Origin: a bacterium | GTDB taxonomy: Bacteria; Patescibacteriota; Minisyncoccia; UBA6257; 02-FULL-45-10c | Length of the DNA: 64,000 bases | Reading direction: 5' to 3' | NCBI GenBank assembly: GCA_021786945.1 | Contig: JAJYMK010000001.1 | Coordinates: 794-64,793 of the forward strand | Part shown: positions 41,027-64,000 of the stretch, piece by piece | Numbering within the stretch: the stretch's first letter is position 1 | How the letters are laid out: every line of letters starts with the position of its first letter | Notes under the pieces: model-generated | Seen by the model: only the letters and a program-made list of their open reading frames with translations | Databases searched by the model: none | Told to the model about the DNA's origin: nothing | Made by a program: the position numbers and the translations under genes

Positions 41027-41027
41027 G

Positions 41028-43220: not shown

Positions 43221-43310
43221 GGAGGCGTGGCTGAGCGGTCGAAAGCAGCACACTGCTAATGTGTTGAGGGGGAAACCCCTCCGAAGGTTCGAATCCTTCC
43301 GCCTCCGCCA
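43221..43310 (+). tRNA. tRNA-Ser (anticodon GCU), class II, CCA encoded. Integration site of the downstream element.
   Basis: Acceptor GGAGGCG/CGCCTCC, D-arm GCT-GAGCGGTCGAA-AGC, anticodon stem GCACA/TGTGT with loop CTGCTAA, variable stem GAGGGG-GAAA-CCCCTC, T-arm GAAGG-TTCGAAT-CCTTC, then G-CCA. Confidence 0.9.
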
Positions 43311-44830
43311 GATTTCCAACTTTGAACCGTAGAAACTGCAAGGGTTTTCGAGCCCTTTGATGGTTTCGGTGGTTCGAGTTTGGAGACTTGCAAATCCATA
43401 AGAACATCAAAGACTGGCGTCCATATCGGCGTCAGTTTTTGATTACTGACAGTGAACCCCTCAAAACAAAGCTTCATCAATGTGCGTTTTTGATGCATTG
43501 AGCTGGTATTGAACACCTTGTCGGCATGATCCGTGAAGTCCAGTAATTCATTAAATTTCTGCACGAATTTGTCAGACTTGCCCTCAAGCACCCCTAAGCG
43601 GTCCTGATACATTTCCTTCTCCTTTAAAAGCTCGTCCTGAATCTTTATAAAGACATCGGCGTCAATAATACGCTGGGAACGATCCACAACGATATTGCGA
43701 ATTTGTTGCTGAACTCTTATAAGCTCACGCTTGAGACTCTTGCGTTCTTTGTCCTCCTGCTCAAGCCTTTCTTTGGCAAAATATTGAAAGTAAGAATCAA
43801 GCACCTTCTTAAACTTATCAGGTAGATGAACCCGTGATAAATGGTTTGCGACCTGTTCCTCAACGACCTCCCATCTCATGTATTTGCGTTCAGTGCAGTT
43901 TTTGTCCTGCCAGTGAGTGCATGAATAGTAAAGATGACCTTTCTGCATCTGTCCGCAGAGTGTAGACCCACACACTGCACATCTCATAAACCCTGCCATA
44001 GGATACGAATGCTTGCGAGTACGATCGGCGTAATGATTGTGCTGTTGGACTACTTCCTGAACATCATCAAAAAGCTTCTTTGAGATCAAAGGCGGAAAAT
44101 TTGCCTGACAAGTGGCTGATCGAGTTTTTATAAGACCGTAGTAAATTGGATTGCAAAGAAAATGCTCAATTGATTTGCGATTAACATGTTTGCCGGATTT
44201 GCTTTTGAGACCTCGCTTATTAAGTTCGGCCGACAGAGAGTCGTATGAATACTTGCCGGTGGCGTAGAGTTCAAAAGCCAGTTTTATATATGGGGCCCGA
44301 ATGTTATCGATAATAAGAGATTTAGTCTTTTTATCGTTTGTGTACCCAATTGGTGCGTATCCAGGGAATCTGCCACGCTCTACGGCCTCTTTAAGACCTT
44401 TCCTGACCTCCCAGCTGATGTTTTGAGATGTCCACTGGGCAATGGAAGCCATGATGTTCTCAACCAGCTCTCCAGAAAAAGACTCATCGAACTGCTCGAC
44501 TACTGAGACAAGTTTGGCATCATGCTTTTTAAGCATCATCTTAATGGCGGCGTAGTCGGCCACATTACGGCACATACGATCAAGCTTGTGGACTAAGATG
44601 ACATCAACCTTACTATCAGTTTTTGCTCGATGAAGCATTTTCTGAAGCTGTGGACGATCAGTCGTTCTAGCTGATTCGCCCTTTTCCTCATAGATACCAT
44701 CTGGGAGTAAATTCCAGTGATGATCCATTCCGTATTTTTGGCACGCTTTGACTTGTGCCGGAATACTCAATTCTCGTTCGGCCTGACGAGAGGTGGAAAC
44801 ACGGCCGTAGATTAAATAATTTGTACTCAT
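43256..44830 (-). CDS. Large serine recombinase (integrase). The C-terminal about 18 codons are encoded by the complement of the tRNA-Ser 3' half.
   Basis: N-terminal resolvase catalytic domain with YGRVSTSRQ (Ser nucleophile). Recombinase domain. Zinc ribbon CAVCGSTLCG...CTHWQDKNC. Coiled-coil. 524 aa. Confidence 0.85.
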   Translation of the reverse strand: MSTNYLIYGRVSTSRQAERELSIPAQVKACQKYGMDHHWNLLPDGIYEEKGESARTTDRPQLQKMLHRAKTDSKVDVILVHKLDRMCRNVADYAAIKMMLKKHDAKLVSVVEQFDESFSGELVENIMASIAQWTSQNISWEVRKGLKEAVERGRFPGYAPIGYTNDKKTKSLIIDNIRAPYIKLAFELYATGKYSYDSLSAELNKRGLKSKSGKHVNRKSIEHFLCNPIYYGLIKTRSATCQANFPPLISKKLFDDVQEVVQQHNHYADRTRKHSYPMAGFMRCAVCGSTLCGQMQKGHLYYSCTHWQDKNCTERKYMRWEVVEEQVANHLSRVHLPDKFKKVLDSYFQYFAKERLEQEDKERKSLKRELIRVQQQIRNIVVDRSQRIIDADVFIKIQDELLKEKEMYQDRLGVLEGKSDKFVQKFNELLDFTDHADKVFNTSSMHQKRTLMKLCFEGFTVSNQKLTPIWTPVFDVLMDLQVSKLEPPKPSKGSKTLAVSTVQSWKSGGGGRIRTFGGVSPSTH

Positions 44831-44876
44831 ACTTTTTGTTATAAAAAAACAGCAGGGCTCTTGGCGAGCCCTGTGG

Positions 44877-45599
44877 TTAGTATTTTTTTATGTGATAAAT
44901 TAACCGACCTATCGGCTTGACCTCTTCAATAGGGTAGGTCTTCTTAATGCCTGGCTGACTCGTTGTGATCTCTAAAGAGTTACCACGCTTTTTATAATAA
45001 GTCATGATCATTCCGTCTGGCGTATTCAATGCCACGATGTCTCCATCATTAATCTCAATATCCGCATCAAGCATAATCAGGTCGCCGGTGATTATACCTG
45101 CCTCCGGAAATGGAGTGACAGAAACTCTGATACCGAATATACGGTGATCACGCACGATCCCGTTTTTTGGAATAAAAATAAATTCCTCCGCATGTTTGAG
45201 GTGCAGATCAAGATCGTCCACCGGAATCGTGTTGAACAGTGGCATCTTGTAATGAGCAACCTCGTCGGCTGTAATTGTCTTTTTCAATTCCTCCAAACCA
45301 GCCTCCAATTTGTGAGTCATCTCTTCGACACGCTTCTCGCCAGCCTCTTTGATATTAAATTTGTAATCAGAGGAAAGACTAACCTTGTGGATCTTCGCTT
45401 CGGTCCACTGTTTTTTTATTTCATCCTCCGAAGTCTCGTAAGCATTCGCTAAAAGACTCAACTGCTTCTGCGAAGGGAGTCGAGTGTCGTTTTCCAGCTG
45501 GCTGACATAACTGGCAGAAAAGCCAAGGCGATCTGCAATATCCTTGGCTGTCCACTGATTGGTTTCTCTTTGTTTTTTTAGATATGAGCCAAATGACAT
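44877..45599 (-). CDS. CI/LexA-like repressor: N-terminal XRE-family HTH and C-terminal S24 peptidase domain.
   Basis: HTH TAKDIADRLGFSASYVSQLEN. C-terminal S24-like VTPFPEAGIITGDLIMLDADIEINDGDIVAL. Divergent from a Cro-like gene. Confidence 0.8.
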   Translation of the reverse strand: MSFGSYLKKQRETNQWTAKDIADRLGFSASYVSQLENDTRLPSQKQLSLLANAYETSEDEIKKQWTEAKIHKVSLSSDYKFNIKEAGEKRVEEMTHKLEAGLEELKKTITADEVAHYKMPLFNTIPVDDLDLHLKHAEEFIFIPKNGIVRDHRIFGIRVSVTPFPEAGIITGDLIMLDADIEINDGDIVALNTPDGMIMTYYKKRGNSLEITTSQPGIKKTYPIEEVKPIGRLIYHIKKY

Positions 45600-45755
45600 A
45601 TTTTTGTTATTTGCTTAATTAATAATCCTAATTACATCTTAGTATAATATAGCAAATATGTAAAGATTAAGCAAATATGCTTATCCACAAGGACAGTAAT
45701 TGACGAATTAAGCAAAATTGCTTAATATGACTATAGAGGTCTAATTTATCAAACT
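45600..45755. promoter_or_regulatory. Phage immunity region with three operator-like palindromes built from TTAAGCAA/TTGCTTAA half-sites, plus divergent promoters.
   Basis: O3 perfect palindrome TTAAGCAAAATTGCTTAA (45708-45725). O2 TTAAGCAAATATGCTTAT (45669-45686). O1 half-site TTGCTTAATTAA (45611-45622). Confidence 0.7.
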
Positions 45756-45962
45756 ATGAAAAAAACACCAACCAACATTCGACTGAGGGATATTAGAATC
45801 GAGAAAGGGCTAACGCAATACAAACTAGCCCGTATTCTCGGCTTTAAACATAACACAGCGATCAGCCGATATGAGACCGGAAGAAAACGGCCGAATTTGG
45901 AAACCGCCCAGAGAATTGCCCTAGCGTTGGGGGTAAAAGTAGAGGATATTTTTTTGCCTTAG
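45756..45962 (+). CDS. Cro-like XRE-family HTH protein (68 aa).
   Basis: LTQYKLARILGFKHNTAISRYETG, the classic XRE helix-turn-helix. Confidence 0.8.
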   Translation: MKKTPTNIRLRDIRIEKGLTQYKLARILGFKHNTAISRYETGRKRPNLETAQRIALALGVKVEDIFLP

Positions 45963-46041
45963 AAGTTAAGCAAAAACGCTTAATGGAAAAGGTGTGTGAG
46001 GGTCAATAAAAGTGTGAGGTCACTCTTATGAACCAAACCAC

Positions 46042-46320: not shown

Positions 46321-46511
46321 TTTCACAATCCGAGAATTAGAAAACCCGAATATTCGGCGTGGCTTTTGCAGAGCAATGGACAACATCGACCGAGCTCTCC
46401 CGAAATCCAGTGAATGGTAGATAGCACCTTACTCTCCCCTCAATGACGCCAGGCGTGAAGGGAGGAATAAGGCGCGATCTGTGGGTCGGTCACGCCTTTT
46501 TATTCACGGCC

Positions 46512-47078
46512 ATGTCGGACGATAAAATAAAAGTAAGAGATTTAAGAAATGGCGATTGGTTCTGGATTAGCAAAGTACTTCTCGATGAGTATGGAAGCAA
46601 AATTAAACCAATCGGCATCGCTATTTATAATTGCCTGGCTGAACACGCTAATCAGGAGGGTTTTTGTTTTCCATCCCATAAGCTTATCGCTGACAGAATT
46701 GGCTCGAGCGTTTCTAGTGTGCAAAGAGGTATCCGACAACTCATCAAGCTTGGACTAATAAACAAGAAACGCCGAAAATTTTCTAATGTGTATTACCTGT
46801 TGAAAGTAGATAGGTCAGATAGACCGAACTTAAAACAGATCGGTCAGCCTGACCGGCAGTTCGGTCATACAGACCGGTGGGATCGGTCCAATGGACTTAC
46901 TAACAAGAATAAAGAAAAAGATTTAAATAAAAAGAATTACGAGCAAATTAAAAATTTCAAAGAATTAAGGTCGATGTTAGCCGAGAAAATGTCCATTGGA
47001 GGGGTAAAGATAAAAATTATAGACGGTAAGAAGCACATGTGGACGGGACAGAAATGGGTAGCAGTCGAGGATACTTAG
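46512..47078 (+). CDS. Winged-helix DNA-binding protein, phage replication-initiator/DnaD-like N-terminal domain (putative).
   Basis: WFWISKVLLDEYGSKIKPIGIAIYNCLAEHANQEGFCFPSHKLIADRIGSSVSSVQRGIRQLIKLGLINKKRR is a typical wHTH of phage replication proteins. The track start at 46443 lies inside a terminator-like hairpin (GGCGTGA...TCACGCC + TTTTTATT, 46454-46503), so the ATG at 46512 is preferred. Confidence 0.5.
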   Translation: MSDDKIKVRDLRNGDWFWISKVLLDEYGSKIKPIGIAIYNCLAEHANQEGFCFPSHKLIADRIGSSVSSVQRGIRQLIKLGLINKKRRKFSNVYYLLKVDRSDRPNLKQIGQPDRQFGHTDRWDRSNGLTNKNKEKDLNKKNYEQIKNFKELRSMLAEKMSIGGVKIKIIDGKKHMWTGQKWVAVEDT

Positions 47079-47182
47079 ATTGCTTTTAACGGTTCGGGGA
47101 GGAGGTCGAACCCGAGCTTTTAATTGGTCGTTTATTAATCATTTATGATCAGGGCTCAAAAAACCCACAAATAAAAAACAGT

Positions 47183-47597: not shown

Positions 47598-49526
47598 TTA
47601 AGTTCTAAATTTATATAATTGTAGACCATTCAAAACAACAATTAGAGTAACGCCAACATCGGCAAAAATAGCCAAAGATAGATTACTTAAACCGAATACA
47701 GCCAAAATTAAGAATATAAACTTAGCGCCTAGCGCAAAATAAGTATTAAATTTTATCTTAGATACGGTCTTTCGACTCAATTCAATCAAATAAGGTATAA
47801 GTTTAAGATCGTCATTCATTAGAGCTATATCTGCACTTTCAATAGCGACATCGGAGCCAAGCGACCCCATAGCTATGCCTACACTGGCTCCCGCCAAGGA
47901 CGGTGCATCATTAACGCCGTCGCCAACCATTGCCACTTTAATATTTTGTTTGGATTTGTCGGTTATGATGTTAACTTTATCTTCGGGCATTTTTTCTGAA
48001 TATATTTCAGATATGCCCAACGCTTGGGAAACATATTTAGCCGATCCGTCATTGTCGCCAGTCACCATGTAACATTTTATCCTCAATTTTTTTAGTTTAT
48101 CAATCGTTGGTCTTGAGTCATTTCTTATTTCATCAGATAAGGCAATTATTCCTTTTACTGTTTTTTCTCCGCCCAAGAATATAACCGTCTTACCTTCTTC
48201 TTCCAGTCTAATTTTTTCGCCCTCCATCTGTTTACTGATTTCAGTATTGTTAAATTGACTTTCAACCAATCCAATTTTTCCCAGGCAGTGTCTGGTATCA
48301 GTGCAGACTGTACAATCTCCTAAAACACCTTCTCCTTGCATTGATTTAAAATTATTAAATTGATGAATCTCTACCTCTTGCGAAACCGCTTTTTCAACTA
48401 CACCTTGTGATAATGGGTGTTCGGAAAATTTACCAAGACCAGCAGAACAGCTTAATACTTCTTCTTTAGTAAAACCATTAAAAGGTATGATATCGGTCAC
48501 TTCGGGTTTCCCCACAGTTAATGTCTTTGTTTTATCAAAACCAATTTCTGTTATTTGAGATAAGTCCTCAATAATCTTACCACCTTTGATCAAAGCTCCT
48601 TTTTGACTGGCGTTACCGAGCGCTGAAAATACTGAGATTGGTGTTGATATCACTAAGGCGCATGGGCAGGCAATAAGCAGAATTGTCAGTGATTGCACCA
48701 GCCAAAATTGCATTGAGCCATTAAGAACAAAGACAGGAACGATAAATAATGCAATAGCAAAAATAGTTACGGCCGGCGTATAATAGCGTGCAAATTTTTC
48801 AATAAATTTTTGTGACTCTGCTTTTTTCTTTACTGCTTCGCCGGTCATGTGAACAATTTTATTCAGGGTTGAGTCTTTTGCCTCTTTTTCGATTTTAATT
48901 TCTAAATAACCGCCATTATTTACTGATCCGGCATATACCTTGTCGCCAATCATTTTACTTTTTGGCAGTGGTTCACCTGTGATTGTCGATTCATCAACCA
49001 GGCTGTCACCAAAAACAATCTCTCCATCAAGACCAATTTTGTCTCCGGGTTTGATTATAATAATTTCTCCAATCCCGACCTCTTCGATTCTTACACTCTT
49101 GCCGGATTTAAGTTCGGCCGTTTTCGGAGAGCTGTTTATTAATTTTTCTAAAGCTAAACGACTTCGCTGAATGCCGTATTCCTCTAAGGCTTCACCCAGA
49201 CCAAACAAAACTACAATGATTGAGGCTTCTTCAAATTTCTGAAGGAATATTGCCCCGATAATTGCAATAGCCATCAAGAGATTGATATCCGAGAAATTAA
49301 ATTTGAATAAATTTTTGAATCCGCTGAGAAATATTTTTCTGCCAAAAATTAAAATCACGGCAATAAAAAACGGAAATCGAATCCACGGACTAAGATCAAT
49401 CGAGAGAAACGAGAGCACTTCCAGCGGAATAATAAAGAATAGTGCACCTACTAACCACCTGATTTTGCTATGTGATGGTTTTATTTTATTTTTTTGTTCT
49501 TTAGAACAATTTTCGCAATCATCCAT
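47598..49526 (-). CDS. P1B-type heavy-metal-translocating ATPase (element cargo) with a non-canonical phosphorylation motif DKTKT.
   Basis: CPC motif LIACPCALVISTP. GDGVNDAPSLA. TGDN-like MVTGDNDGS. DKTKTLT instead of DKTGTLT (I checked the DNA: gat aaa aca aag aca tta). The track start at 49604 overlaps the next gene. The internal Met (MDDCENC, 49526) is preferred. Confidence 0.8.
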   Translation of the reverse strand: MDDCENCSKEQKNKIKPSHSKIRWLVGALFFIIPLEVLSFLSIDLSPWIRFPFFIAVILIFGRKIFLSGFKNLFKFNFSDINLLMAIAIIGAIFLQKFEEASIIVVLFGLGEALEEYGIQRSRLALEKLINSSPKTAELKSGKSVRIEEVGIGEIIIIKPGDKIGLDGEIVFGDSLVDESTITGEPLPKSKMIGDKVYAGSVNNGGYLEIKIEKEAKDSTLNKIVHMTGEAVKKKAESQKFIEKFARYYTPAVTIFAIALFIVPVFVLNGSMQFWLVQSLTILLIACPCALVISTPISVFSALGNASQKGALIKGGKIIEDLSQITEIGFDKTKTLTVGKPEVTDIIPFNGFTKEEVLSCSAGLGKFSEHPLSQGVVEKAVSQEVEIHQFNNFKSMQGEGVLGDCTVCTDTRHCLGKIGLVESQFNNTEISKQMEGEKIRLEEEGKTVIFLGGEKTVKGIIALSDEIRNDSRPTIDKLKKLRIKCYMVTGDNDGSAKYVSQALGISEIYSEKMPEDKVNIITDKSKQNIKVAMVGDGVNDAPSLAGASVGIAMGSLGSDVAIESADIALMNDDLKLIPYLIELSRKTVSKIKFNTYFALGAKFIFLILAVFGLSNLSLAIFADVGVTLIVVLNGLQLYKFRT

Positions 49527-49530
49527 AAAT

Positions 49531-50463
49531 TTAAAATATAATGAATTTATTGAGCACACTTTTGTATACTCTGTAAGGCTTCGGTCCGACAAATGCCTTA
49601 CCATTAATAAATACGGTGGGTGTTCCGTATAGATGTGTTTTTCTTAATTGATTGACCTGATTAGTCACAGCTTCTTTTGTTGCGGAGTCGTTAACACAAT
49701 CATTTATTTTACTGATATCAAAATCAAAATTTTTCAATATCGTATTGATGTATTCGGACTGATAGATTTCCACCTTATCAACAGTAAATAGGTAGTCATT
49801 AAAAGACCAAAATCTATCTCCATATTCCTTATAAACGCAATAACCGACTTCAGATAGAAAATTGGTATTTTCTTTGGCTGGGTAATGAGCGAAAATATAA
49901 TTGGTCTTTTTTTCTCGTACTAACTTTTGAATATCCGGATAAGCCTTTCTTGTGTAGTCGCATTCATAACAGCCGATCAAAACTATCGTATCTTTAGCGC
50001 CGACTTGCTTAGTCGGAAAGGACGATAAGTCAACGCCGTCCAATGATACATTTTTTTCTGATTTTTCTTCAATTCCGCAAGAAGCATTTATTTCAGTCAC
50101 TTTGTTGTTCTCTCCCTTTGGATCAAAAGCACAAAATCCGCTTTGATTTAATCCATTGCAACTACCGTAAAGATAATAGTTATAACCTCCCTTAACGACA
50201 TAGAATGTGCTGGCAATCATAAGAATAAAAAATATCCAGGCAAACACTTCGTAATAACGATTAAAAGCACGAGCCAAAAAGGTTGACCGATTAAGTAGTT
50301 TGGCAACCATGTGGCTCTTAATTTTTTCTTTGAAGCCAGTATTGCACGGACGCAAGGTCACTCTCCTAAACACGCAATCCAGGGCCTCCTTGGCCATTTG
50401 CCTGTGGGTGGCACTGAAAATGCCAAGTATGGAAAATATTATTAAAGCTACAATACAAATCAT
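49531..50463 (-). CDS. Membrane-anchored DsbA-like thiol:disulfide oxidoreductase (CxxC = CYEC) with an N-terminal 2-TM domain bearing two extra Cys pairs.
   Basis: Thioredoxin-fold motifs IGCYECDYT and YGTPTVFINGK (cf. DsbA GVPTFFING). N-terminal TM helices with C..C loops. Confidence 0.6.
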   Translation of the reverse strand: MICIVALIIFSILGIFSATHRQMAKEALDCVFRRVTLRPCNTGFKEKIKSHMVAKLLNRSTFLARAFNRYYEVFAWIFFILMIASTFYVVKGGYNYYLYGSCNGLNQSGFCAFDPKGENNKVTEINASCGIEEKSEKNVSLDGVDLSSFPTKQVGAKDTIVLIGCYECDYTRKAYPDIQKLVREKKTNYIFAHYPAKENTNFLSEVGYCVYKEYGDRFWSFNDYLFTVDKVEIYQSEYINTILKNFDFDISKINDCVNDSATKEAVTNQVNQLRKTHLYGTPTVFINGKAFVGPKPYRVYKSVLNKFIIF

Positions 50464-50473
50464 AATTTTGTTT

Positions 50474-51187
50474 TTAGAAATTTCTAATTTTATTTACTTT
50501 CCAATTCATCAGATGTCTGGTCAGATTTTGATAAATGAACTTTTTTATTAAATTCAGCTTCTGTCTGTGAGCAGGAAAGAAAGAATCTGGATCATCAAAG
50601 ACTCCAAAGTCTTTTTTTACGGCCTCTTTTTGGATATAGGTGTCATTTTCATTCCAATAAATATCTGGGTTTTTGAATTTTTTTGTACCAACACCAAAGC
50701 CACAAAAAGCACCGTCACAATTCTTGAATTTTATTTGTAATTTCTTGATATATTCTAAATCTAAAATAAAACCCTCTATGTTTAACCATTTACCTTTGTA
50801 ATACACTTCCACCCAGCTATGAATAATTTCTTCCGGAGCCAGCTTATACCATATCCCAGTTATAATACCTTTTTGCAATTCTTTATGGATTGTAAATCCA
50901 TGAATCCTGCAAGGAATTCCGATTGCCCGGAGTAATGCCATAAATAAAATCCCTTTTGTATTGCAATGACCATAACCCTCACTTAAAATTTCCGAGGCAG
51001 GAAGGGCATCATCTGCATTATACCCAAACCTAATCTCATCGCGAATAAAATTATAGACTGTATATATTTTTTCTTTGTCGGGGAGGGCTTCCCATTTGTG
51101 GATACTGATTAACTCCTGAATATTCTTGCTGTGAAAATTTAACAAAAGGGTTTCTTCCAAATATTTGTTCATGCTATTATTTGTCAT
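50474..51187 (-). CDS. Transglutaminase-like cysteine protease superfamily protein.
   Basis: Cys in EGYGHCNTKGILFMALLRAIGIPCR. His in HSWVEVY. Downstream Asp. Confidence 0.65.
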   Translation of the reverse strand: MTNNSMNKYLEETLLLNFHSKNIQELISIHKWEALPDKEKIYTVYNFIRDEIRFGYNADDALPASEILSEGYGHCNTKGILFMALLRAIGIPCRIHGFTIHKELQKGIITGIWYKLAPEEIIHSWVEVYYKGKWLNIEGFILDLEYIKKLQIKFKNCDGAFCGFGVGTKKFKNPDIYWNENDTYIQKEAVKKDFGVFDDPDSFFPAHRQKLNLIKKFIYQNLTRHLMNWKVNKIRNF

Positions 51188-53471: not shown

Positions 53472-53529
53472 TAATGTTTAGGTAATAAAAGACTACCCAG
53501 CACAAAACAAAGGTAGTCAACCACAAACA

Positions 53530-53970: not shown

Positions 53971-54449
53971 GCTGTGCCATCGTTTGTGGACATACTAAAA
54001 TACGACCGCTTAGCGACAATAATTAAATCCGCAAAATTAGGATGGAACGACAAAACTTGCGAATCGGCTTGTAGTGATCGTATGAGCTTTCGGTCCGCTT
54101 CATCCGGTGTTGGGTCAATAGAGCCCGGATGGTTCAATAGAATAATAAACTTCTTGGCCAAAAATAGAGAGAAGTAATGCCACAGCATTTGAGTATCAAA
54201 ATTCTTGGGAGATGATCCGAGGAAAACTTGATGACCGAGGAATAGATTTTTGTCATCAAGATAAATTCCAATAATCTTGGAAACATTCTCGTTTTCCAAG
54301 TCCTTAAGAAATTTATATAAGTCCTCTGGATCACGAACTTGACCCTGAATAGGTAGTTCAACATCAGTCTCAACGATTTCAAATTTCTTCAAATATCGTT
54401 TACCTTCCTGATGTATATTTTCCTCTTTTTTATCTTCTTGTTTTTTCAT
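53934..54449 (-). CDS. RadC-like JAB/MPN domain protein.
   Basis: LLNHPGSIDPTPDEADRKLIRSL matches the RadC JAMM motif H.HPSG.P.PS..D. 171 aa. Confidence 0.65.
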   Translation of the reverse strand: MKKQEDKKEENIHQEGKRYLKKFEIVETDVELPIQGQVRDPEDLYKFLKDLENENVSKIIGIYLDDKNLFLGHQVFLGSSPKNFDTQMLWHYFSLFLAKKFIILLNHPGSIDPTPDEADRKLIRSLQADSQVLSFHPNFADLIIVAKRSYFSMSTNDGTACHCGHQEYIPE

Positions 54450-54468
54450 AGCGATTTCTTATTAAAAT

Positions 54469-55539: not shown

Positions 55540-55860
55540 AGTTTTGGTTGATAATTTAACGCTATAAGTTATATAGTGGATTATAATGGATTACAGCCGT
55601 AAATGCAAGTCAAAGACCTATAAATATCGAAAAGTCCCGAATATGGAGGTTTTATTGGAATATTAGGCTTAAAATTGGGGTTCAAGTACTGGTATTTCCA
55701 ATGTGAATGAAATTATGTTATAATTTAGTCAACTGGTAATGCTTTGCGTTAGTAGCCGTGAAATATGACAGCTTGCTGCTTTTTTTCAATATACAGGTAT
55801 AATAGCGTTAGCTTAGGTAACAGCAAGCTTCATAAAAAACATCCTTTAAATTTATATCTT

Positions 55861-56826
55861 ATGAACAAACAAATTAGTAAAAAATATAAGTCGCTCGACT
55901 TGTTTGCCGGAGTCGGTGGAATAAGGATGGGTTTTGAAAAAGCTGGGTTTGAGACTGTCTTTGGAAATGATTTTGATGCATATTGCAAAATTACCTATGA
56001 TTTAAATTTCAAGGATGTCCCATTAACGGTTGCTGATATTTCAAAAGTTAAAAGCTCCGATCTGCCAAATTTTGATATTCTCCTTGGAGGATTTCCGTGC
56101 CAGCCTTTTTCAATCGCAGGATATCGTAGGGGGTTTCTTGATACAGGACGGGGTGATTTATTTTTTGAAATTGTAAGAATTTTGCGTGACAAAAAACCAC
56201 GAGCAGTTTTTCTTGAAAATGTAAAAAATTTAAAATCACATGATGGTGGAAAAACTTTTAAGATTATCTCTGATGCCCTTGAGGATCTTGGCTATCATGT
56301 AAAGGTAAAAATACTTAATAGCGTAGAATACGGAAATGTGCCTCAGAACAGAGAAAGAGTTTATATTGTTGGTTTCAAATCAAAAAAACAATATGATGCC
56401 TTTGAATTTCCCGAGCCCGTAAAACTAAGCAAAACTATCGCCGATATTCTTGAAAAGAATGTAGACGAAAAATATTATTATACAAATTCACCACTTTATC
56501 CGGAACTCAATAAAACAATCAAAAAAAATAATGTTGTATACCAGTGGCGTCGCATTTATGTTCGGGAAAATAAGAGTGGAGTTTGTCCAACCCTAACTGC
56601 GAATATGGGCATGGGCGGTCACAATGTTCCCCTGATCAGAGATCATAAGGGAATCCGCAAATTAACCCCACGGGAATGTGCAAGGTTCCAAGGATTTCCT
56701 GACAGTTATAAACTTCCAAAAGATTTTCCTGATACGAAGCTTTATAAACAATTTGGTAATTCAGTTACCACAACCGTGATCGAAAGAGTTGCTAAAAAAA
56801 TAAGCAAGGCTTTAGATGTAAAATAG
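55861..56826 (+). CDS. DNA (cytosine-5)-methyltransferase.
   Basis: Motif I LDLFAGVGGIRMGF. Motif IV GGFPCQPFSIAG. Motif VI FLENVKNL. The track start 55765 is probably too early. I prefer the Met (MNKQISKK) at 55861. Confidence 0.9.
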   Translation: MNKQISKKYKSLDLFAGVGGIRMGFEKAGFETVFGNDFDAYCKITYDLNFKDVPLTVADISKVKSSDLPNFDILLGGFPCQPFSIAGYRRGFLDTGRGDLFFEIVRILRDKKPRAVFLENVKNLKSHDGGKTFKIISDALEDLGYHVKVKILNSVEYGNVPQNRERVYIVGFKSKKQYDAFEFPEPVKLSKTIADILEKNVDEKYYYTNSPLYPELNKTIKKNNVVYQWRRIYVRENKSGVCPTLTANMGMGGHNVPLIRDHKGIRKLTPRECARFQGFPDSYKLPKDFPDTKLYKQFGNSVTTTVIERVAKKISKALDVK

Positions 56827-56827
56827 C

Positions 56828-58009
56828 ATGTTTTTAGAAAGACAATCACAAAGTCAGGTTGGTTATTACGAACGGCTCCTAAAGGCCGTTGGTTCGTTGT
56901 CGAATCTTTTCTCAGAATCTCCGGAACCATATCTTGCATCACGAGCTACGGAAAATTTATTTTGTAAAGCTTTTGAAGCTCAGAATCTTTCTCGTTCAGA
57001 CGCTTCAGCTGATGCGTCTAAGGGAAAAATTGGATTTGGTATAAAAACATTTCTTGAGGGAAATGGTAGAACAATGCAAAAGGTTGCGGAATTTAATAGT
57101 GACCATTTGATGTTTGGCACTCTTCCGCCCGAGGAAAAAGTAAGAAAAATCGCTGAACTTAGAAATGAGCGTATTTTAACCACGAAGCGTATTTTTGGTC
57201 TGGATGATCTTATTTATCATTGTATAACTCGTAAGGTGGGGAAAATTATTGTATACGAAACTCCCGCCCCACTTATAGATATAAACAGCATAAGAGATGT
57301 TAAGGTCACCGCAAGAGGTGCTACGATACAGTTTTCTGATTCTAACGCTGAATATTCATTTAATAATTCAAAAAGCACTCTTTATAAAAGATTTATAACT
57401 CCCGATCGAGTACTTCTTGATGTGCCTGTAAGGATTTTAACAGACCCATTTTCTGCTGTAGAAAAATTAATATCAGAAGCTGGTCTTATCTTTGCTCCAG
57501 TCAAAGTTTTACCGCATGTATTCTTACCACTATACTCTATGAGGGGTGGTGTTAAGCGCGTACCAGAGAAAAGCGGATTGAACCAATGGAATGCAGCCGG
57601 TCGGCCACGCGATCCAAATGAAATATATATTCCAATTCCTGTGTGGATTCACCGTAAATTTGACGGTTTTTTTCCTCCTCGGGATGGAGCATTCGAACTT
57701 ACGCTCCCAGACGGAACCACTATGAGTGCCAAAGTGTGCCAAGATAATTCCAAGGCATTAATGAGTAATCCTAATTCAGCATTGGGTAAATGGTTATTAA
57801 GAGATGTCTTAAATTTGAAAGAAAAAGAGCTTTTGTCATATGATAAACTTCAAACCATTGGCCTTGATACGGTTGTAATTTACAAGGTCGATAATGAACA
57901 TTTTGATATTGATTTTACTCGTGTGGGTTCTTATGAGAAATTTGAAATTGAAAATGGTGAAAATAACGAATCAGAAACCGACACAACCCAAGATCAAGAC
58001 GATGAATAA
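56828..58009 (+). CDS. Putative Type II restriction endonuclease cognate to the C5-MTase (assigned by context).
   Basis: 393-aa ORF, stop-start overlap with the MTase (TAGCATG). No recognisable family motif by eye. The call rests on genomic context. Confidence 0.4.
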   Translation: MFLERQSQSQVGYYERLLKAVGSLSNLFSESPEPYLASRATENLFCKAFEAQNLSRSDASADASKGKIGFGIKTFLEGNGRTMQKVAEFNSDHLMFGTLPPEEKVRKIAELRNERILTTKRIFGLDDLIYHCITRKVGKIIVYETPAPLIDINSIRDVKVTARGATIQFSDSNAEYSFNNSKSTLYKRFITPDRVLLDVPVRILTDPFSAVEKLISEAGLIFAPVKVLPHVFLPLYSMRGGVKRVPEKSGLNQWNAAGRPRDPNEIYIPIPVWIHRKFDGFFPPRDGAFELTLPDGTTMSAKVCQDNSKALMSNPNSALGKWLLRDVLNLKEKELLSYDKLQTIGLDTVVIYKVDNEHFDIDFTRVGSYEKFEIENGENNESETDTTQDQDDE

Positions 58010-58304
58010 ATTATGCACAGAAAAAACTATTGTGCTGTTTTTTGAAAAGTAGTATAATGCAATTAACAATCAAATAGAGTTATGCCTCACGAGGCATCCT
58101 GAAAGGAATTCCAAGTTTAAGAGCTTGCGATTAATTATCACTTTTTGTGGTAATCAATCGCAAGCTCTTTTTTGTTTGATTGTTGCCAGCTCTCTGCCAC
58201 GCCCAATAACGGTCGACATCCAATCTTGTTAATCGACCTCACACTGCCCGAGCTCAAGGGTTCGGGTAATAAAAATATACAAGGGATGTGGGCGTGCCAG
58301 AGAT

Positions 58305-59342
58305 TTGAGAATTAAAAAAAATATGTTTAGTAAATTTCAAGCATTGCCGAGTTACTTCGGCGGAAAAAGAAAACTGGTCAAGCACATTTTTAAGCCGATC
58401 AAAAAGACCGAGGGAATTTTTATTGATGCATTCTTGGGAGGCGGATCAGTGAGTCTCTACGCCAAAGCAAAAGGATACAAAGTTATAAGCAACGACATCG
58501 CCTTCCGGTCAGTGATCATCGGTCGAGCGATTATCGCAAACAATTCCGTCAAACTTGAATCCGAGGATTTAGCGAGATTATTTTTTGAAACAAAACACGA
58601 CAGCTTTATAAAAAAGAATTATTGTCCAAAAGTATTCACCACCAAGATTGCCGAATTTTTAGATAACGCTTTCGCTTCTGCCAACAAAGTGGAAAACGAA
58701 ACAAAACGCTACCTTTTATTGCATTTATTGATTAAGTTTATTCTTTCTTGTCGACAGTTTGGAAAGTTTACACACACCCGGGACACGCTGGATTTGGAAG
58801 CTCGAAAATGGGAGTGGCCACTCCGGTCCAAGTCTCACGCCCCAAAGAATTTGCGGATGATACAGAATCCAATGATGACTTTGGAAAAATTAAAAGACGA
58901 AATTAATCATGGTATTTTTGATAACCATCAAGACAATGAAATACACCAACAGGATGTGTTTGATTTTCTCAAACAAGTTAAAGGTAATGTTGTTTATTTT
59001 GATCCTCCTTATCCTGGCTCTTCTGCCTACGAAGTTGAGTATGGGATTTTAGATAACATTCTCGCCAACAAAAAGCTGGATAATAAACCGAGTGGTTTCT
59101 CCAACAACGATGCTGATGAATTTTTAGAAAAAATGCTTGAGTCGGCAAAACATATTCCACAGTGGATCATCTCGCTCGGACAAAACAAAGAGGATGTCGG
59201 AATGAAGCCAGAAAAACTTTTGGCGATGGTGCAGAAACATCGCAAAGCCGAAGTGCAGATGATGGAACACAAATGGAGTGTGGCCAACGCCGGAGGTCGA
59301 AACCAAAGTAATAACATCGAATACATGATCGTAACTTTATGA
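58305..59342 (+). CDS. DNA N6-adenine methyltransferase, Dam/D12 class (orphan, phage-type).
   Basis: Motif I-like LPSYFGGKRKL and FLGGGSV. Catalytic DPPY (YFDPPYPGSSAY). Confidence 0.85.
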   Translation: MRIKKNMFSKFQALPSYFGGKRKLVKHIFKPIKKTEGIFIDAFLGGGSVSLYAKAKGYKVISNDIAFRSVIIGRAIIANNSVKLESEDLARLFFETKHDSFIKKNYCPKVFTTKIAEFLDNAFASANKVENETKRYLLLHLLIKFILSCRQFGKFTHTRDTLDLEARKWEWPLRSKSHAPKNLRMIQNPMMTLEKLKDEINHGIFDNHQDNEIHQQDVFDFLKQVKGNVVYFDPPYPGSSAYEVEYGILDNILANKKLDNKPSGFSNNDADEFLEKMLESAKHIPQWIISLGQNKEDVGMKPEKLLAMVQKHRKAEVQMMEHKWSVANAGGRNQSNNIEYMIVTL

Positions 59343-60148
59343 AAAAAGAAAAAACCGAAATCAAAATAGTGAAAATAAAAGAGTGCGTTCCGAACTGGTG
59401 GAATCCGAACGAAATGAACGCTCGCCAATTTTCATCACTTAAAAAAGCTTTGACTAAATACGGACAAACCAAACCAATACAAGTGGGAGTCTGGCCGAAC
59501 ATGAAAGTCAAAGACGGCTATGTGATCGTGGGCGGATATCACACTTGGAAAGTGCTTGGCGAACTTGGCGAAGCCGAGATTGAAGCCAATATCCACAATT
59601 TCAAAAATGAGGACGAAGCCAAACTTTATGGGTTAACCGATAACATTCACGGTTCAAACCAACAAATAAAACTCGGCAAGCTCGCCTACGAGTTAACCCA
59701 AAACGGATATTCAATCAAAGACATTGCTCAGAATCTTGGCGAGGAAGATATCAATGTCAAAGATGCCCTCGACTTAGTGAAAGATGAAATAGAAAAGAAA
59801 ATGATTGAGCTTAAAAAAGCCGAGCGAGAAAATACTGTCGTTTTGAATTTCATCGTAGACAAAGACCCAGAAGCATCAGCCGATGAATTTATAAAAGCCG
59901 TAACTGCATTTGCGAAAGCAAAAGGCATAAAGGTCGAGAAAGCAGTCAAAGATATAAATAAGCAAAGAGAAACTATCGCTCTAATGAGTTTCAATGTGAC
60001 CAATCCGCAAAAAGGCGTGATAGATGAAGCGTTAAATACCCTGACAAAAGAAACCAAAATGACCGAGAGTGAGGCGATCGCAGAGGTGTGTAGCCGATTT
60101 ATAAATACACAAAACGGCAACATTCAGCAACAAACCGCAACAAAATGA
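59339..60148 (+). CDS. ParB-like nuclease (ParB/Srx N-terminal) domain protein.
   Basis: KIKECVPNWWNPN...KPIQVGVWPN..DGYVIVGGYHTWKVLGELG parallels ParB-N (I.PNP.QPR... PI.V..... Y.LI.GERR.RAA..LG). 4-nt overlap with the Dam gene. Confidence 0.6.
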   Translation: MKKEKTEIKIVKIKECVPNWWNPNEMNARQFSSLKKALTKYGQTKPIQVGVWPNMKVKDGYVIVGGYHTWKVLGELGEAEIEANIHNFKNEDEAKLYGLTDNIHGSNQQIKLGKLAYELTQNGYSIKDIAQNLGEEDINVKDALDLVKDEIEKKMIELKKAERENTVVLNFIVDKDPEASADEFIKAVTAFAKAKGIKVEKAVKDINKQRETIALMSFNVTNPQKGVIDEALNTLTKETKMTESEAIAEVCSRFINTQNGNIQQQTATK

Positions 60149-60567
60149 ACAAAAAAGTTGATATCAAATGCACCAAGTACCAAGAAGCGATTCGCCTTAA
60201 GTATAACGGCGAGTCTTATCCTGTTATTGCCCGAAAGCTTAAAACTCCGGTATCAACAGTTGAGAAATGGTTTGCTTTTGGCGGTTTGCTTAAGGAGGAA
60301 TACGAAACTTATAGAGATGGACAGAACGAAATCAGAAAAAGCCAAGCCGAGTGGATACTGCACAAAAGCGTTGAGACTGCCTCATCGATGCTCGTTGCCC
60401 TTATGGGGAGTCCCGATGACGGCGTAAAATTTCGTGCGTGCAAAGAGATACTCGACCGTGAACTCGGAAGCCCCAAAGAAACCATCGAACATAAAGGATT
60501 ATATGGAACAGGCCTAAGCTATGAACAAATACTCAGAAAAGCCAGAGAGAGACCACCCGACGGTTAA
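60145..60567 (+). CDS. Putative terminase small subunit (HTH protein preceding TerL).
   Basis: 140 aa. HTH-like YPVIARKLKTPVSTVEKW. Position immediately upstream of, and overlapping, the large terminase gene. Confidence 0.45.
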   Translation: MNKKVDIKCTKYQEAIRLKYNGESYPVIARKLKTPVSTVEKWFAFGGLLKEEYETYRDGQNEIRKSQAEWILHKSVETASSMLVALMGSPDDGVKFRACKEILDRELGSPKETIEHKGLYGTGLSYEQILRKARERPPDG

Positions 60568-62167
60568 AACGCTGGTGGATTTCGTGAATTTTTTCGATGC
60601 TGATCCGAGAGAATTCATCGAGGAATGCCTGTTCATAAAGACGAAAGACCAGCAAACTGTTCCTTTAAAGTTTAATACCGCTCAGTACCTGATTTATAAG
60701 AGAATCAAAGAACTGAAAGCCCAAAACAAACCGATCAGAATGATTATTCTTAAAGCCAGACAAGAGGGCGTGTCCACACTTTGCGAGGGTTTGATATTCG
60801 AACGAACCGCAAGGTTTGAAAACAGCAATTCACTGATTGTCGCTCACGAACCTGAATCGACCGATGCGATATTCTCAATGAGTAAACTGTTCTACGACCT
60901 CCTGCCGTTTGATGTTAAGCCAATGCGACGGTACGACAACAAAAAGCAGATGGTCTTTGAGAATCCGGACGAGAAAGGCCGAACCAATAATCCCGGACTG
61001 CGAAGCCGAATGGTTATATCAACCGCCGACAAGACAAAAATCGGTAGAGGTTTGACCATCCATAACTTCCACGGTTCAGAGGTAGCCTTTTGGAAAAATG
61101 CCAAAGCTTTGATGCTCTCAGTACTGCAATCAATTCCGAGCTTACCGAACACTGCCGTCTTTCTCGAATCAACTGCCAACGGTTTCGGTGGTGACGGCGA
61201 ATACTTCTACCAAATGGTACAAGATGCTCTGGCTGGCAAAAACGAATTCGAGCTTATATTCCTACCATGGCACTTGATGCCCGAATATAGCCAACCATTC
61301 GCAAGCGATGCCGACAAAAAGAAGTTTGCCGAAACATTGGACGAATATGAGAAAGAATTGAGAGCAAAAGAAAACCTGACCTATGAGCAATTGAAATGGC
61401 GTAGATGGGCAATCCAAAACCTCTGCGGTGGCGACACGGATAAATTCAAACAAGAATATCCTGCCACTATCGAGGAATCATTCGTTGCCTCAAGTAAAGC
61501 TGTAATTCCGAAGCAGTACATCGAAGCTCAAAGTAAATTCGTCAGACAACCGATAAGAAAACTGGACGACATCCTGATATACGAGGAACCCAACCTGAGA
61601 CATTTCTACAGTCTGGGTGCTGATCCAGCCGAGGGTATCGGACAAGACGATTCGGCGATCACGATCATAGACAAGATGACCGGACGAGAAGTCGGAAGTT
61701 ACATCGGGCAAATCCAACCGGACTTATTTGCCAAGAAAATCAGACAATCAGCCGAACTGTTCAACGATGCTCTGGCAGTAATCGAAATAAACAATCACGG
61801 ACTGGCGGTAATCAACGCTCTCAAGACTGAATACTCAAACATTTACCAACGAACAGTCTTTGACAAAGTCACCAACACCAAGAGAAAAGAGCTTGGCTGG
61901 AAAACCAGCCAAACAACCAAACCTCTGATGGTCGATGACTTCATAGCCGGATTGCGTGACGATGACATCGGTTTGTCGAGTCAATCAACCGTAAGCCAAA
62001 TGATGACATTCGTTCACACCAGTGAAAGCAGTAAGTACGGTATGGGAGCGGAAACTGGACAGAAAGATGATGCATTAATTTCGGCAATGCTCGCATGGCA
62101 AGGATTAAAAGAATTACCAAGCGAGATGCCAATGACACGCAAAGGTCGAACAATAAAACTTTATTAA
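60521..62167 (+). CDS. Terminase large subunit (ATPase + RNase-H-like nuclease).
   Basis: Deviant Walker A KARQEGVST. Walker B/coupling region TIHNFHGSEVAFW. Motif III FLESTANG. Nuclease Asp cluster LGADPAEGIGQDDSAITII. Confidence 0.75.
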   Translation: MNKYSEKPERDHPTVKTLVDFVNFFDADPREFIEECLFIKTKDQQTVPLKFNTAQYLIYKRIKELKAQNKPIRMIILKARQEGVSTLCEGLIFERTARFENSNSLIVAHEPESTDAIFSMSKLFYDLLPFDVKPMRRYDNKKQMVFENPDEKGRTNNPGLRSRMVISTADKTKIGRGLTIHNFHGSEVAFWKNAKALMLSVLQSIPSLPNTAVFLESTANGFGGDGEYFYQMVQDALAGKNEFELIFLPWHLMPEYSQPFASDADKKKFAETLDEYEKELRAKENLTYEQLKWRRWAIQNLCGGDTDKFKQEYPATIEESFVASSKAVIPKQYIEAQSKFVRQPIRKLDDILIYEEPNLRHFYSLGADPAEGIGQDDSAITIIDKMTGREVGSYIGQIQPDLFAKKIRQSAELFNDALAVIEINNHGLAVINALKTEYSNIYQRTVFDKVTNTKRKELGWKTSQTTKPLMVDDFIAGLRDDDIGLSSQSTVSQMMTFVHTSESSKYGMGAETGQKDDALISAMLAWQGLKELPSEMPMTRKGRTIKLY

Positions 62168-62169
62168 AT

Positions 62170-64000
62170 ATGGCAAATACAAAAGAACTACAAAAATTCA
62201 ATAGTGAGTACGATGAAGCCAAGAAAAACTTCTTGTACTACTACAAGCCCGAATTTGATCGGGGTTATAAACTGTTTTCCTCTTACAACGGTGATCGTGC
62301 CGAGCAATTGGAAAAAACAATTGACGGCGAGATCTGGCAGTCAAATGTTTTTATTCCTCAAGTATTTTCATACATCAAAACCTTTTTACAAAAGACAGTC
62401 GGCATAACACCTGACTTCAAGCTCGAGGGTAAAAACAATGAAGCCTTGAAAGACCTTGTGCTGTGGCTTTGGGAGATTGGCATGAGTGACGACTTAGTCG
62501 ACTTCTTCCTGCAAGTATTTATCTGCGGAACTACAATCGGAAAAGACTTCCTCAGAAAAGAAACCAAGAAAAAGAGACAAAAAGAAATCGGTATCATCGA
62601 CAAGATCAAGAAGCTGGTATTCAAGACTGCAACATCCAAGATCGTCTTCCGACCAGACTTTGACCCTGTGGATATTTATAACTTCTATCCACATCCGAGA
62701 ATGAAAAAGATTGCCGATCCATTCCCAGTATTCCATCGCTATGTGCTGACACTGGATGAAATGAAAGCTCAATATCCGGATGTGAACGAAAGTGTGTGGA
62801 AACAATTCCTAAACACTGACGGCGAAGTGGCAAAGTCCGGTGGCGATATCACAGACTATGCTTATGTGCGAAAAGAAGTCTTGATACAACTTAGAAAGAG
62901 TTTGAGAGAAACAACTAAGGCGACAAGTCCGATTGAGGGTAACCCAAACAATCCGGTCCAAATGCCAACGACCAGTGAGAAGTTATTTGAAGTCGTTGAA
63001 AGATGGATTGATGACAGGTTTACTGTATTCCTGCCGATGGACGGCACACCAATAGAAATAAAAGACGGTGACAATCCGTACGACCACGAACAGAAACCTT
63101 ATTCCAGAACTGGATTCTTCCCAAGACCGTTCTCGTTTTACTGGCTCGGTATTCCAAAACTTGTTGACCATTTGCAAGAACTTCTCAACTCCGTAACCAA
63201 CCAAAGAGTCGATGCGGTGACAATGAAAATTCACAGCATGATTGCGGCCGCACCGGTGGCTCTACCCGGATACAAGCAATCAACCATAACAGTCAAACCA
63301 CTCGGAATCTTATGGACTAATGATCCAAACTCAGTCAAAGAACTTAAATTCGGCGATGTTAACTCTTCGGCTTTCGTAGAGCCTGACCACATCAAAGAAG
63401 CTATGAGAATTGCTGTGGGAATAGACGAATTCACCACTACGGCCGGTGTGGACAGAAAAGAAACTGCGACCGTTGCCTCGTTTATGCGAGAAGCAACACT
63501 TGAGGGTGTGAAGTTATTCCTGATCATGCTTCGCAATTCTTACATCATGCACTTTGACCACTGGATCAGCATGATAAAGCAATTCTGGACAAAGAAGTCT
63601 GTAATGCCCGATAAGGCCGTAGCAATTCTGACCAGACACGGACTTATAACCGAAGCAGACGAAAGCGTAAATGGATTGTTTGACGATGAGTACGAGATGT
63701 CCCTCGAATCAACATCATCACTGGCCACATCTTCCGAGCTTAAGAAAGCAAAAGATTTGGAATTATGGGGATTGATTAAAGATGTGAACGAATTAACTGA
63801 TGCCGAAACTGGAACGGTGTATTCAATCAAGAAATTTAAAATATTAATGAAGCTTTTTGAGGATTACGGCTGGGAGCCGACAAACTACATCACCGAACAG
63901 AAACAACCTCCGATCGTACCGACAGATCAAGGTTCAGAAATACCAGCCGGTGAAGCACCTGCCGTTGACCCAAACGAACCCCCAGCACCAGCACTTCCCG
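62170..64000 (+). CDS. Portal-like phage structural protein, 3'-partial (continues beyond the window).
   Basis: Open frame from ATG 62170 to the window end (spot-translated at 63001 and 63961 without stops). The first gene after TerL and longer than 610 aa. The call is mainly by position. Confidence 0.4.
   Translation, partial: MANTKELQKFNSEYDEAKKNFLYYYKPEFDRGYKLFSSYNGDRAEQLEKTIDGEIWQSNVFIPQVFSYIKTFLQKTVGITPDFKLEGKNNEALKDLVLWLWEIGMSDDLVDFFLQVFICGTTIGKDFLRKETKKKRQKEIGIIDKIKKLVFKTATSKIVFRPDFDPVDIYNFYPHPRMKKIADPFPVFHRYVLTLDEMKAQYPDVNESVWKQFLNTDGEVAKSGGDITDYAYVRKEVLIQLRKSLRETTKATSPIEGNPNNPVQMPTTSEKLFEVVERWIDDRFTVFLPMDGTPIEIKDGDNPYDHEQKPYSRTGFFPRPFSFYWLGIPKLVDHLQELLNSVTNQRVDAVTMKIHSMIAAAPVALPGYKQSTITVKPLGILWTNDPNSVKELKFGDVNSSAFVEPDHIKEAMRIAVGIDEFTTTAGVDRKETATVASFMREATLEGVKLFLIMLRNSYIMHFDHWISMIKQFWTKKSVMPDKAVAILTRHGLITEADESVNGLFDDEYEMSLESTSSLATSSELKKAKDLELWGLIKDVNELTDAETGTVYSIKKFKILMKLFEDYGWEPTNYITEQKQPPIVPTDQGSEIPAGEAPAVDPNEPPAPALP

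Follow-up and report, generated by a model that had tools for sequence, protein, structure and literature searches.

Genes at the locus

We analysed a stretch of 64,000 nucleotides (below, the window), positions 794 to 64,793 of contig JAJYMK010000001.1 in the assembly GCA_021786945.1, from a bacterium of the Patescibacteriota. At about 43.2 kb the chromosome gives way to a prophage whose integrase gene overlaps a tRNA-Ser gene, and the attachment of this element to the tRNA is the subject of this text. The left 43 kb of the window are ordinary chromosome, with genes for glycosyltransferases, ClpB, HtrA, a P-type ATPase, the leucyl-tRNA synthetase LeuRS, a PrsW-family protease, an Hsp20-family protein, a patatin-like phospholipase, RbfA and translation initiation factor IF-2. 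The host tRNA-Ser(GCU) gene, with CCA encoded, follows at 43221-43310 on the plus strand (ARAGORN; Rfam, 60.6 bits) and forms the B half of the left attachment site attL.

The integrase gene, encoding a large serine recombinase (LSR) of 524 amino acids (aa) in its prophage form, is located at 43256-44830 on the minus strand. The open reading frame (ORF) overlaps the tRNA gene by 55 nt, that is, 17 sense codons and the stop codon, and these 17 codons are read from the strand opposite to the host tRNA. An LSR gene entering the 3' half of tRNA-Ser(GCU) had already been noticed by a model that saw the letters of the window and the translated reading frames alone (the sequence-only reading), and this observation holds.

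The protein matches the Pfam domains Resolvase (4.6e-31), Recombinase (PF07508, 8e-15) and Zn_ribbon_recom (PF13408, 6.2e-07), and the PHROG integrase family phrog_95 (1.5e-96). Residues R10, S12, D84, R85 and R88, as well as the cysteines C284, C287, C304 and C312, are invariant in a family alignment of 29 sequences. Judged by these domains and residues, the integrase is a large serine recombinase. No Phage_integrase domain, characteristic of tyrosine recombinases, was found in the ORFs scanned in the window part of the element.

Unoccupied sites and boundaries of the element

The IF-2 of the window is also encoded, with 100% identity, on the Logan contig SRR22746137_42533 (L012) and on contig L014. 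Both contigs are unoccupied sites: the tRNA-Ser gene is directly followed by the cell-wall gene mltG (yceG), the ATG codon of which starts 2 nt past the CCA. The tRNA-Ser(GCU) gene of the window is 100% identical to that of L012, and blastn alignment of L012 with window positions 39889-43310 also yields 100% identity.

The element extends beyond the window. The large terminase (TerL) of the window was found in the ENA contig ERZ27236928:k141_59091 (L001), which is 100% identical to the window across 13.5 kb and thus extends the window's own contig. A search for MltG with 100% identity yielded two further contigs, L041 (ERZ27237183) and L042 (from the same sample as L001), in both of which the right end of the phage is fused to mltG. 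Positions 1-2382 of L041 are 100% identical to L001, and its right flank, from position 9937 onward, is 99.98% identical to L012 (blastn). The left- and right-flank alignments of L012 overlap by exactly 6 nt.

In window-equivalent coordinates derived from the blastn mapping, the prophage occupies 36,417 bp from 43305 to approximately 79,727, between tRNA-Ser(GCU) and mltG, and the window holds its leftmost 20.7 kb. All three sites were recovered, attL in the window, attR in L041 and L042, and the unoccupied site attB in L012 and L014. The unoccupied attB comes from a conspecific strain, the flanks being 99.98-100% identical to those of the lysogen. The mature tRNA, including its CCA, is untouched by integration, and the 3' trailer alone is altered. 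At the other end, integration separates mltG from the DNA that natively precedes it. A promoter-like TTGTAA-17-TATAAT site in the right end of the phage faces mltG and is kept in relatives.

Source names of homologous proteins are Parcubacteria, Patescibacteria and Minisyncoccota. The nearest MltG proteins in GTDB genomes belong to Patescibacteria metagenome-assembled genomes (MAGs), including the Microgenomates-group Gottesman-, Ames- and Roizmanbacteria; the scan of GTDB with MltG gave only relatives of at most 63% identity, in which the synteny of tRNA-Ser and mltG is not kept. The standard genetic code fits. These data support a host from the Candidate Phyla Radiation (CPR), though no particular class within it. 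We also considered that the window might come from a huge phage with translation genes; this was rejected, since the left 43 kb are ordinary chromosome and are contiguous with host DNA in the strain with the empty site.

Several other assemblies end in the same place. The MAG contig DAIBYD010000001.1 (L013, positions 1-168; GCA_027424165.1, 502,876 bp) stops 14 nt into the same tRNA-Ser, and contigs L006, L008, L044 and L045 likewise end at the tRNA, a short way past it, or near attR. Since assemblies break at the att site, binning of CPR genomes probably often misses such prophages.

Very probably, then, the DNA from 43305 to the end of the window is the left part of a temperate podovirus-like phage with a module of SU10 type, integrated by an LSR between tRNA-Ser(GCU) and mltG in a Patescibacteria chromosome. 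A temperate phage at tRNA-Ser in a CPR host is also what the sequence-only reading had proposed, and the recovery of attL, attR and attB, together with the names of the homologues and the Patescibacteria relatives of MltG, bears it out.

Attachment sites

Comparison of attB, attL and attR, as well as the 6-nt overlap of the blastn alignments, places the att core CCGCCA at 43305-43310. It consists of the last two nucleotides of the acceptor stem, the discriminator G and the encoded CCA. The attB site reads ...GAAGGTTCGAATCCTTCCGCCTCCGCCA up to the junction and AATGACTAGATC after it. In attL, the tRNA sequence is as in attB and is followed by GATTTCCAACTTTGAACCGTAG, and in attR, ...ATACCGGTTCAAAGTTCCGGACATCGTCACCGCCA is followed by AATGACTAGATC. 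The attP junction reconstructed from these sites is predicted to contain ...GTCACCGCCAGATTTCC.... The 6-bp CCGCCA is the sole sequence common to attB and the reconstructed attP, and hence the crossover dinucleotide must fall inside it. The two ends of the prophage, attL and attR, also have only these 6 bp in common, and attR holds no second copy of any tRNA fragment.

The P' arm of attL (GATTTCCAACTTTGAACCGTAGAAAC..., 43311-43345) is part of the coding sequence at the 3' end of the integrase gene, and the same arm is seen in about 48 related junctions; the attP core, too, is inside the 3' end of the integrase ORF. The reconstructed attP contains a perfect 12-bp inverted repeat, CGGTTCAAAGTT/AACTTTGAACCG, one copy being in the P arm (at attR) and the other in the P' arm, with 26 bp between the arms. 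In attB, the motif GGTTCGAA, which is the T-loop of the tRNA (GGTTCRAA), is situated 11 nt from the core. The P arm of attP carries the motif GGTTCAAA, with the same consensus GGTTCRAA, which ends 16 nt ahead of the core and recurs in the inverted repeat of the P' arm.

A 5-bp offset between the half-sites of attP and attB is said to belong to the LI integrase structural model of Rutherford et al. 2013. The 5-bp offset seen here would fit the model of recombinase-domain and zinc-ribbon-domain (RD/ZD) binding by serine integrases. The general RD/ZD framework is confirmed in PMC5814800. From the position of these motifs, we infer that the bacterial half-site is the T-arm of the tRNA together with the 3' strand of the acceptor stem. 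In the mechanism proposed here, the LSR of the phage would catalyse integration at CCGCCA, the 3' tip of the tRNA gene, and would read the T-arm and the 3' acceptor strand as its bacterial half-site.

A second complete att set was found on contigs L058 (attL) and L124 (attR). Its core is identical to that of the window element, and the P arm is similar. The downstream half-site B' of this second element is the tRNA terminator, and only 3 of 15 positions match the B' arm of the window element. Since B' is not conserved between the two fully resolved sites, recognition of attB seems to rest mainly on the tRNA half-site. An exact search of JGI metagenomes for the B' arm gave no match.

Some contigs carry additional tRNA sequences near the att sites. 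In L124 (18207-18420), a second copy of the tRNA-Ser 3' end is located about 190 bp past attR; after it come TGAAAA and a terminator, and the DNA separating the two copies contains inverted T-arm-like fragments. The second tRNA 3' end may have been left as a scar when earlier integrations used this site. In L093 (5557-5774), a 23-nt fragment of a tRNA 3' end is found about 115 nt away from an intact tRNA-Ser. In L094 (5557-5640), the integrase gene adjoins a tRNA-Ser(GGA)-like sequence with the variable arm and the T-arm replaced by about 8 nt. The sites of L093 and L094 are thus unusual variants of the target.

Contig L004 was considered as a genome in the attP form and rejected, because its integrase is only 27% identical and the P' side has no inverted repeat. 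At positions 17945-19561 of this contig, the right end of a related phage, with a P arm ending in CACCGCA, adjoins the 3' end of the gene for this different LSR, the ORF of which now reads into the P arm. It is more likely that L004 represents two elements in tandem at one tRNA.

Integrase clade and choice of tRNA

A protein search with the integrase yielded about 33 clusters at 64-90% identity. The C-termini of all of them contain the pattern ...SGG-x-x-IRT..., which is the in-frame translation of a tRNA 3' end. Past IRT, the tails of the homologues vary both in length and in sequence. Integration swaps the C-terminal tail of the LSR, which has 524 aa in the integrated form described here and is predicted to have 557 aa in the excised circle. 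The swapped tail is non-conserved, starts past the last conserved motif and has no evident degradation tag. Given the variable tails of the homologues, the tail of the prophage form is probably a by-product.

A scan of metagenomes with the LSR family alignment gave 80 loci, of which about 48 had a legible attL junction, independent of the others. In all these cases the tRNA ends in CCGCCA and is followed by GAT(T/G)(T/G)(C/G)C.A.TT.GAAC. The junctions, with the window and contig L008 included in the tally, fall at tRNA-Ser with anticodons GCU (17), GGA (13), CGA (8) and UGA (6), and at tRNA-Asp(GUC) (about 6). LSRs 96-99% identical to that of the window, with identical or nearly identical P' arms, are found at other tRNAs, namely Ser-UGA (L044), Ser-GGA (L045, L047) and Asp-GUC (L046). 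A single enzyme thus seems able to use many tRNAs as targets.

The tRNAs of the Ser and Asp classes start with GG and have G as the discriminator base, and for this reason they share the end CC-G-CCA. Judging by the set of occupied tRNAs, the LSR seems mainly to need a tRNA that starts with GG and has a discriminator G and an encoded CCA.

Many LSRs that are more distant, with 30-40% identity and some of them named Actinomycetota (proteins P0049-P0118), have tails of the types GFEPxT, GIEP, DSNP or GIRT, which also are tRNA complements. The habit of overlap between LSR and tRNA genes thus extends beyond CPR, and from these tails it appears to be widespread there.

Two further loci were noted. 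In L008 (2155-2976), an LSR with 78% identity is at tRNA-Ser(CGA), and a tyrosine recombinase (Phage_integrase, 6e-22) is encoded in the variable region. In the IMG/VR contig L010 (6001-7538), a tRNA-Glu(UUC) lies on the opposite strand about 250 bp past the match to an LSR with 24% identity.

Lysogeny, replication and structural genes

The gene next to the integrase (44877-45599, minus strand) encodes a CI-like repressor with an N-terminal helix-turn-helix (HTH) domain (HTH_3, 2.4e-12; phrog_4) and a C-terminal domain of the LexA/S24 fold. The match of the latter to Peptidase_S24 (0.0012) misses the Pfam cut-off. When the protein is aligned to the LexA structures 3k2z and 1jhf, Pro is found at the position of the catalytic Ser and V-D at the Ala-Gly cleavage site, and the Lys is kept. 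Hence the repressor, although its C-terminal domain has the S24 fold, is probably not self-cleaving in the LexA/RecA style, and induction may use another route. A Cro-like HTH regulator (45756-45962, plus strand; HTH_3, 2.6e-16) is divergent from the repressor gene, and a consensus scan shows divergent promoter-like sites between the two (45619-45752). A GC-rich hairpin with a T-run at 44852-44874, terminator-like by pattern match in a consensus scan, is located between the repressor gene and int. By the proposed mechanism, integration would change the integrase tail and would put this hairpin between the repressor gene and int, and the CI/Cro-type switch would maintain lysogeny.

The remaining phage genes described for the window are on the plus strand. 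A replication initiator with a winged HTH is encoded at 46443-47078 (HTH_36, 5.1e-11; phrog_428, 1.3e-16). To the right of the cargo genes described below follow a Dam-type N6-adenine methyltransferase (58305-59342; MethyltransfD12, 1.9e-22), a ParB-like protein (59339-60148; phrog_723, 1.5e-15), a putative small terminase TerS (60145-60567; weak match to phrog_2538, 8e-05), TerL (60521-62167; phrog_2, 2.5e-19, with no Pfam match) and a portal protein (62170-64000), which is cut by the end of the window and has 624 aa in the extended contig. The portal protein matches phrog_1216 (1e-05) and SU10_portal (5.8e-05); the latter match misses the cut-off, and the gene adjoins those for an SU10-type major capsid protein and an adaptor in the extended contig.

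By precomputed Pfam matches, L001 continues with the SU10-type major capsid protein (PF17236), a beta-helix fibre and the SU10-type adaptor (PF24175). Together, L001 and L041 carry genes for the major capsid protein, the adaptor, tail, a LysM protein, an amidase and a membrane protein of 72 aa. In related phages, the gene order ends with the LysM protein, a protein of about 940-1060 aa, the Amidase_2 lysin and the 72-aa membrane protein. This gene content suggests a temperate, podovirus-like phage with a putative structural module of SU10 (Kuravirus) type.

Most of the phage gene list in the sequence-only reading stands, namely TerL, the Cro-like regulator, the replication initiator, Dam and the ParB-like protein. 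Its label CI-S24 was overstated, the catalytic Ser being missing. When TerL and the portal protein were checked against profiles, as it had suggested, TerL was found to belong to a phage family, and for the portal protein, as for TerS, the matches are weak.

Cargo and restriction-modification genes

A strain-specific block of cargo genes (47598-55539, minus strand), delimited by Pfam matches, tetranucleotide composition and comparison with relatives, interrupts the phage genes. It encodes a P1B-type ATPase, a membrane DsbA/thioredoxin protein, a transglutaminase-like protein, a class-V aminotransferase (cysteine desulfurase-like), a thioredoxin-like protein, a small membrane protein, a RadC-JAB protein and a Fic protein. 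The P1B-type ATPase (47598-49604, minus strand) combines the CPC metal motif with a non-canonical phosphorylation motif, DKTKT, where DKTGT is otherwise invariant; the P-type ATPase of the host chromosome (31198-33573, plus strand) has DKTGT. A restriction-modification pair follows on the plus strand, consisting of a C5 cytosine methyltransferase (Dcm; 55765-56826; DNA_methylase, 2.4e-93) and an NgoFVII-like endonuclease (56828-58009; RE_NgoFVII_C, 2.1e-14).

The sequence-only reading had described a rise of the GC content at the boundary with the chromosome. This is correct for the lysogeny module (0.417) and for the genes from Dam to the structural genes (0.43-0.44), and incorrect for the cargo (0.372) and the restriction-modification pair (0.368), which are close to the host (0.363). 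The tetranucleotide composition of the cargo and restriction-modification genes correlates with that of the host at r=0.94-0.95, as against 0.64-0.74 for the phage core. A hairpin with 23-nt arms (91% complementary) and a 5-nt loop is found at 58119-58169, between the restriction enzyme and Dam genes, and coincides with the switch from host-like to phage-like composition. Host composition is heterogeneous by itself: in positions 1-15000 of the window, a run of group-1 glycosyltransferase genes with GC content 0.27-0.33 is followed by a gene (11368-14631, minus strand) whose 1087-aa product includes a peptidoglycan-binding domain and whose GC content is 0.43-0.46.

In relatives 94-97% identical over 43.28-47.24 kb, homology ends at about 47,580; a PD-(D/E)XK nuclease gene is found there, and the cargo is absent. 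Contig L008 has yet other genes at this position. The cargo is therefore read, from gene content and position, as strain-specific moron genes in a variable slot.

One could argue that the whole block at 47.6-58.0 kb is instead a separate mobile element nested in the phage, given its host-like composition, the opposite strand of the cargo (47.6-55.5 kb) and its absence from close relatives, the restriction-modification pair being on the plus strand. We consider this unlikely. A Pfam scan of the block found no recombinase or transposase, the repeats that flank it are AT-rich matches at chance level only, and the other, unrelated genes of relatives at the same position fit a variable slot for phage-acquired morons.

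Alternative explanations

Several observations weigh against the reading of the locus as an active LSR-integrated phage. Two pattern scans of viral contigs for the attP junction of an excised circle gave only one unrelated chance match (L043); with no attP junction recovered, strain polymorphism is the sole sign of activity. Nor was a recombination directionality factor identified. The inferred attP has its centre of symmetry 1 bp left of the shared 6-bp block and so does not single out the crossover dinucleotide; the half-site model draws on the B' arms of two resolved sites and on the 5-bp rule attributed to Rutherford et al. 2013. At the sequence level the assignments of TerS and the portal protein are weak, and in the scan for promoters the site facing mltG is not above chance expectation.

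A prophage that is defective or cryptic, unable to excise or to form particles, would account for the lack of an attP-form contig and of a recognised directionality factor; it would also agree with a repressor lacking the LexA-type cleavage residues and with the DKTKT motif of the cargo ATPase. On the other hand, the set of integrase, terminase, portal, major capsid protein, adaptor, tail and lysin genes is complete and uninterrupted, and the flanks of lysogen and non-lysogen differ by 0.02% at most (99.98-100% identity). Near-identical copies in several samples and close relatives at other tRNAs argue for recent mobility. We find a defective prophage improbable.

A classical tRNA island, in which attP carries a copy of the tRNA 3' half that regenerates the tRNA and the displaced fragment remains as a long repeat in attR, shares with the locus the integrase gene adjoining an intact tRNA 3' end, which is the usual layout for tyrosine integrases, and a faint T-arm likeness of the P arm (CCGG-TTCAAAGTT-CCGG), but is hardly tenable, being already refuted by the sequence of attR, which has only CCGCCA in common with the tRNA, by the 25-nt tRNA segment being single-copy in the window and absent from L001-L003, and by the enzyme being a serine and not a tyrosine recombinase. 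The sequence-only reading had expected just such a direct repeat of the tRNA-Ser 3' segment at attR, and this expectation failed. Its test presupposed an attR of the tyrosine-integrase style. Since a serine integrase yields no such repeat, a criterion based on the repeat would falsely reject a real prophage.

Discussion

The LSR-integrated phage described here resembles phages with known large serine integrases, such as phiC31, Bxb1 and A118/LI, in the three-domain architecture of the enzyme with its invariant catalytic Ser and Arg and Cys4 zinc ribbon, and also in its short core, att sites of less than about 50 bp, inverted-repeat attP and lack of long direct repeats at the ends. The core of 6 bp is in the range of the common cores of mycobacteriophage Int-S sites, 5-8 bp (PMC8092301). 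However, characterised large serine integrases use protein-coding genes or intergenic DNA, whereas the attB of this clade is the 3' tip of a tRNA gene, with several tRNAs tolerated. Unlike in phiC31, Bxb1 and A118/LI, the integrase ORF itself contains the attP core.

The layout is similar to that of the islands of tyrosine integrases (P4, P22, Islander-type): int adjoins an intact tRNA gene, the 3' end of which faces the element, and the tRNA stays functional. The differences are in the enzyme family, in attP, which has no copy of the tRNA 3' half, in the absence of a displaced tRNA fragment, and in the place of crossover, which is in the last 6 nt and not in the anticodon loop, the T-loop or the boundary between T-stem and acceptor stem.

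Integrases of the SSV1 type are split on integration, and their attP, as here, is within coding sequence. Similarly, in the integration-dependent immunity of mycobacteriophages, attP is in coding sequence and integration alters the C-terminus of a phage protein (PMC8092301). Unlike in both these systems, the gene affected here is that of a serine integrase, and only a non-conserved tail is swapped.

In the TIGER/Islander survey (Mageeney et al. 2020, PMC7192596), 14 of 297 elements with serine integrases (S-Int) were at t(m)RNA genes, a previously unreported situation for which experimental proof was said to be needed. The window locus is a clear instance of this class. Beyond the cases of the survey, it adds the empty site, both junctions, about 48 related junctions, the 6-bp core and the use of many tRNAs by one integrase, all from sequence. 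No description of an LSR clade aimed at the CCA end of tRNAs was found in the literature searched, which did not cover subscription literature.

Prophages of Patescibacteria have already been reported (PMC12455944, PMC12647753, bioRxiv 10.1101/2024.03.08.584096), and the sequence-only reading was right only in part to call the prophages of ultra-small bacteria poorly characterised, as the first two of these reports show. In PMC12455944, prophages of Paceibacteria are about 43.7 kb long and carry a C5 methylase. The window element is like them in host phylum, size class and the presence of DNA methyltransferases and auxiliary genes; unlike the present analysis, reports of this type, to the extent read, give no resolved att sites or integrase mechanism. 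The prophage, including its strain-specific metal and thiol-redox cargo, is otherwise an ordinary addition to the known CPR prophages, and the noteworthy part is the LSR clade targeting the tip of tRNA genes.

Genes for tRNAs are regarded as the territory of tyrosine integrases. At the window locus attB, attL and attR are resolved to the base, and about 48 natural junctions are of the same kind. That the serine integrases of this clade cut at the CCA tip and keep the tRNA intact is relevant to target selection by integrases. The position of the att site also explains the breaks in MAG contigs, and hence the probable loss of prophages from bins. An LSR directed to the tRNA tip would help in practice to build genetic tools for CPR bacteria, for which hardly any exist at present.

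We tentatively suggest, as a conjecture about as likely to fail as to hold and perhaps slightly more so, that this clade of LSRs is widespread and uses an attB with essentially one half-site, the generic 3' module of tRNAs with its T-arm and the acceptor end CC-G-CCA, and that the downstream half-site is almost unconstrained. In many hosts, one phage could then insert behind any CCA-encoding tRNA gene that has G1G2 and G73 (Ser, Asp). If true, this would provide an integration tool that needs no landing pad, for CPR bacteria and possibly far beyond, and would settle whether serine integrases really use tRNA genes.

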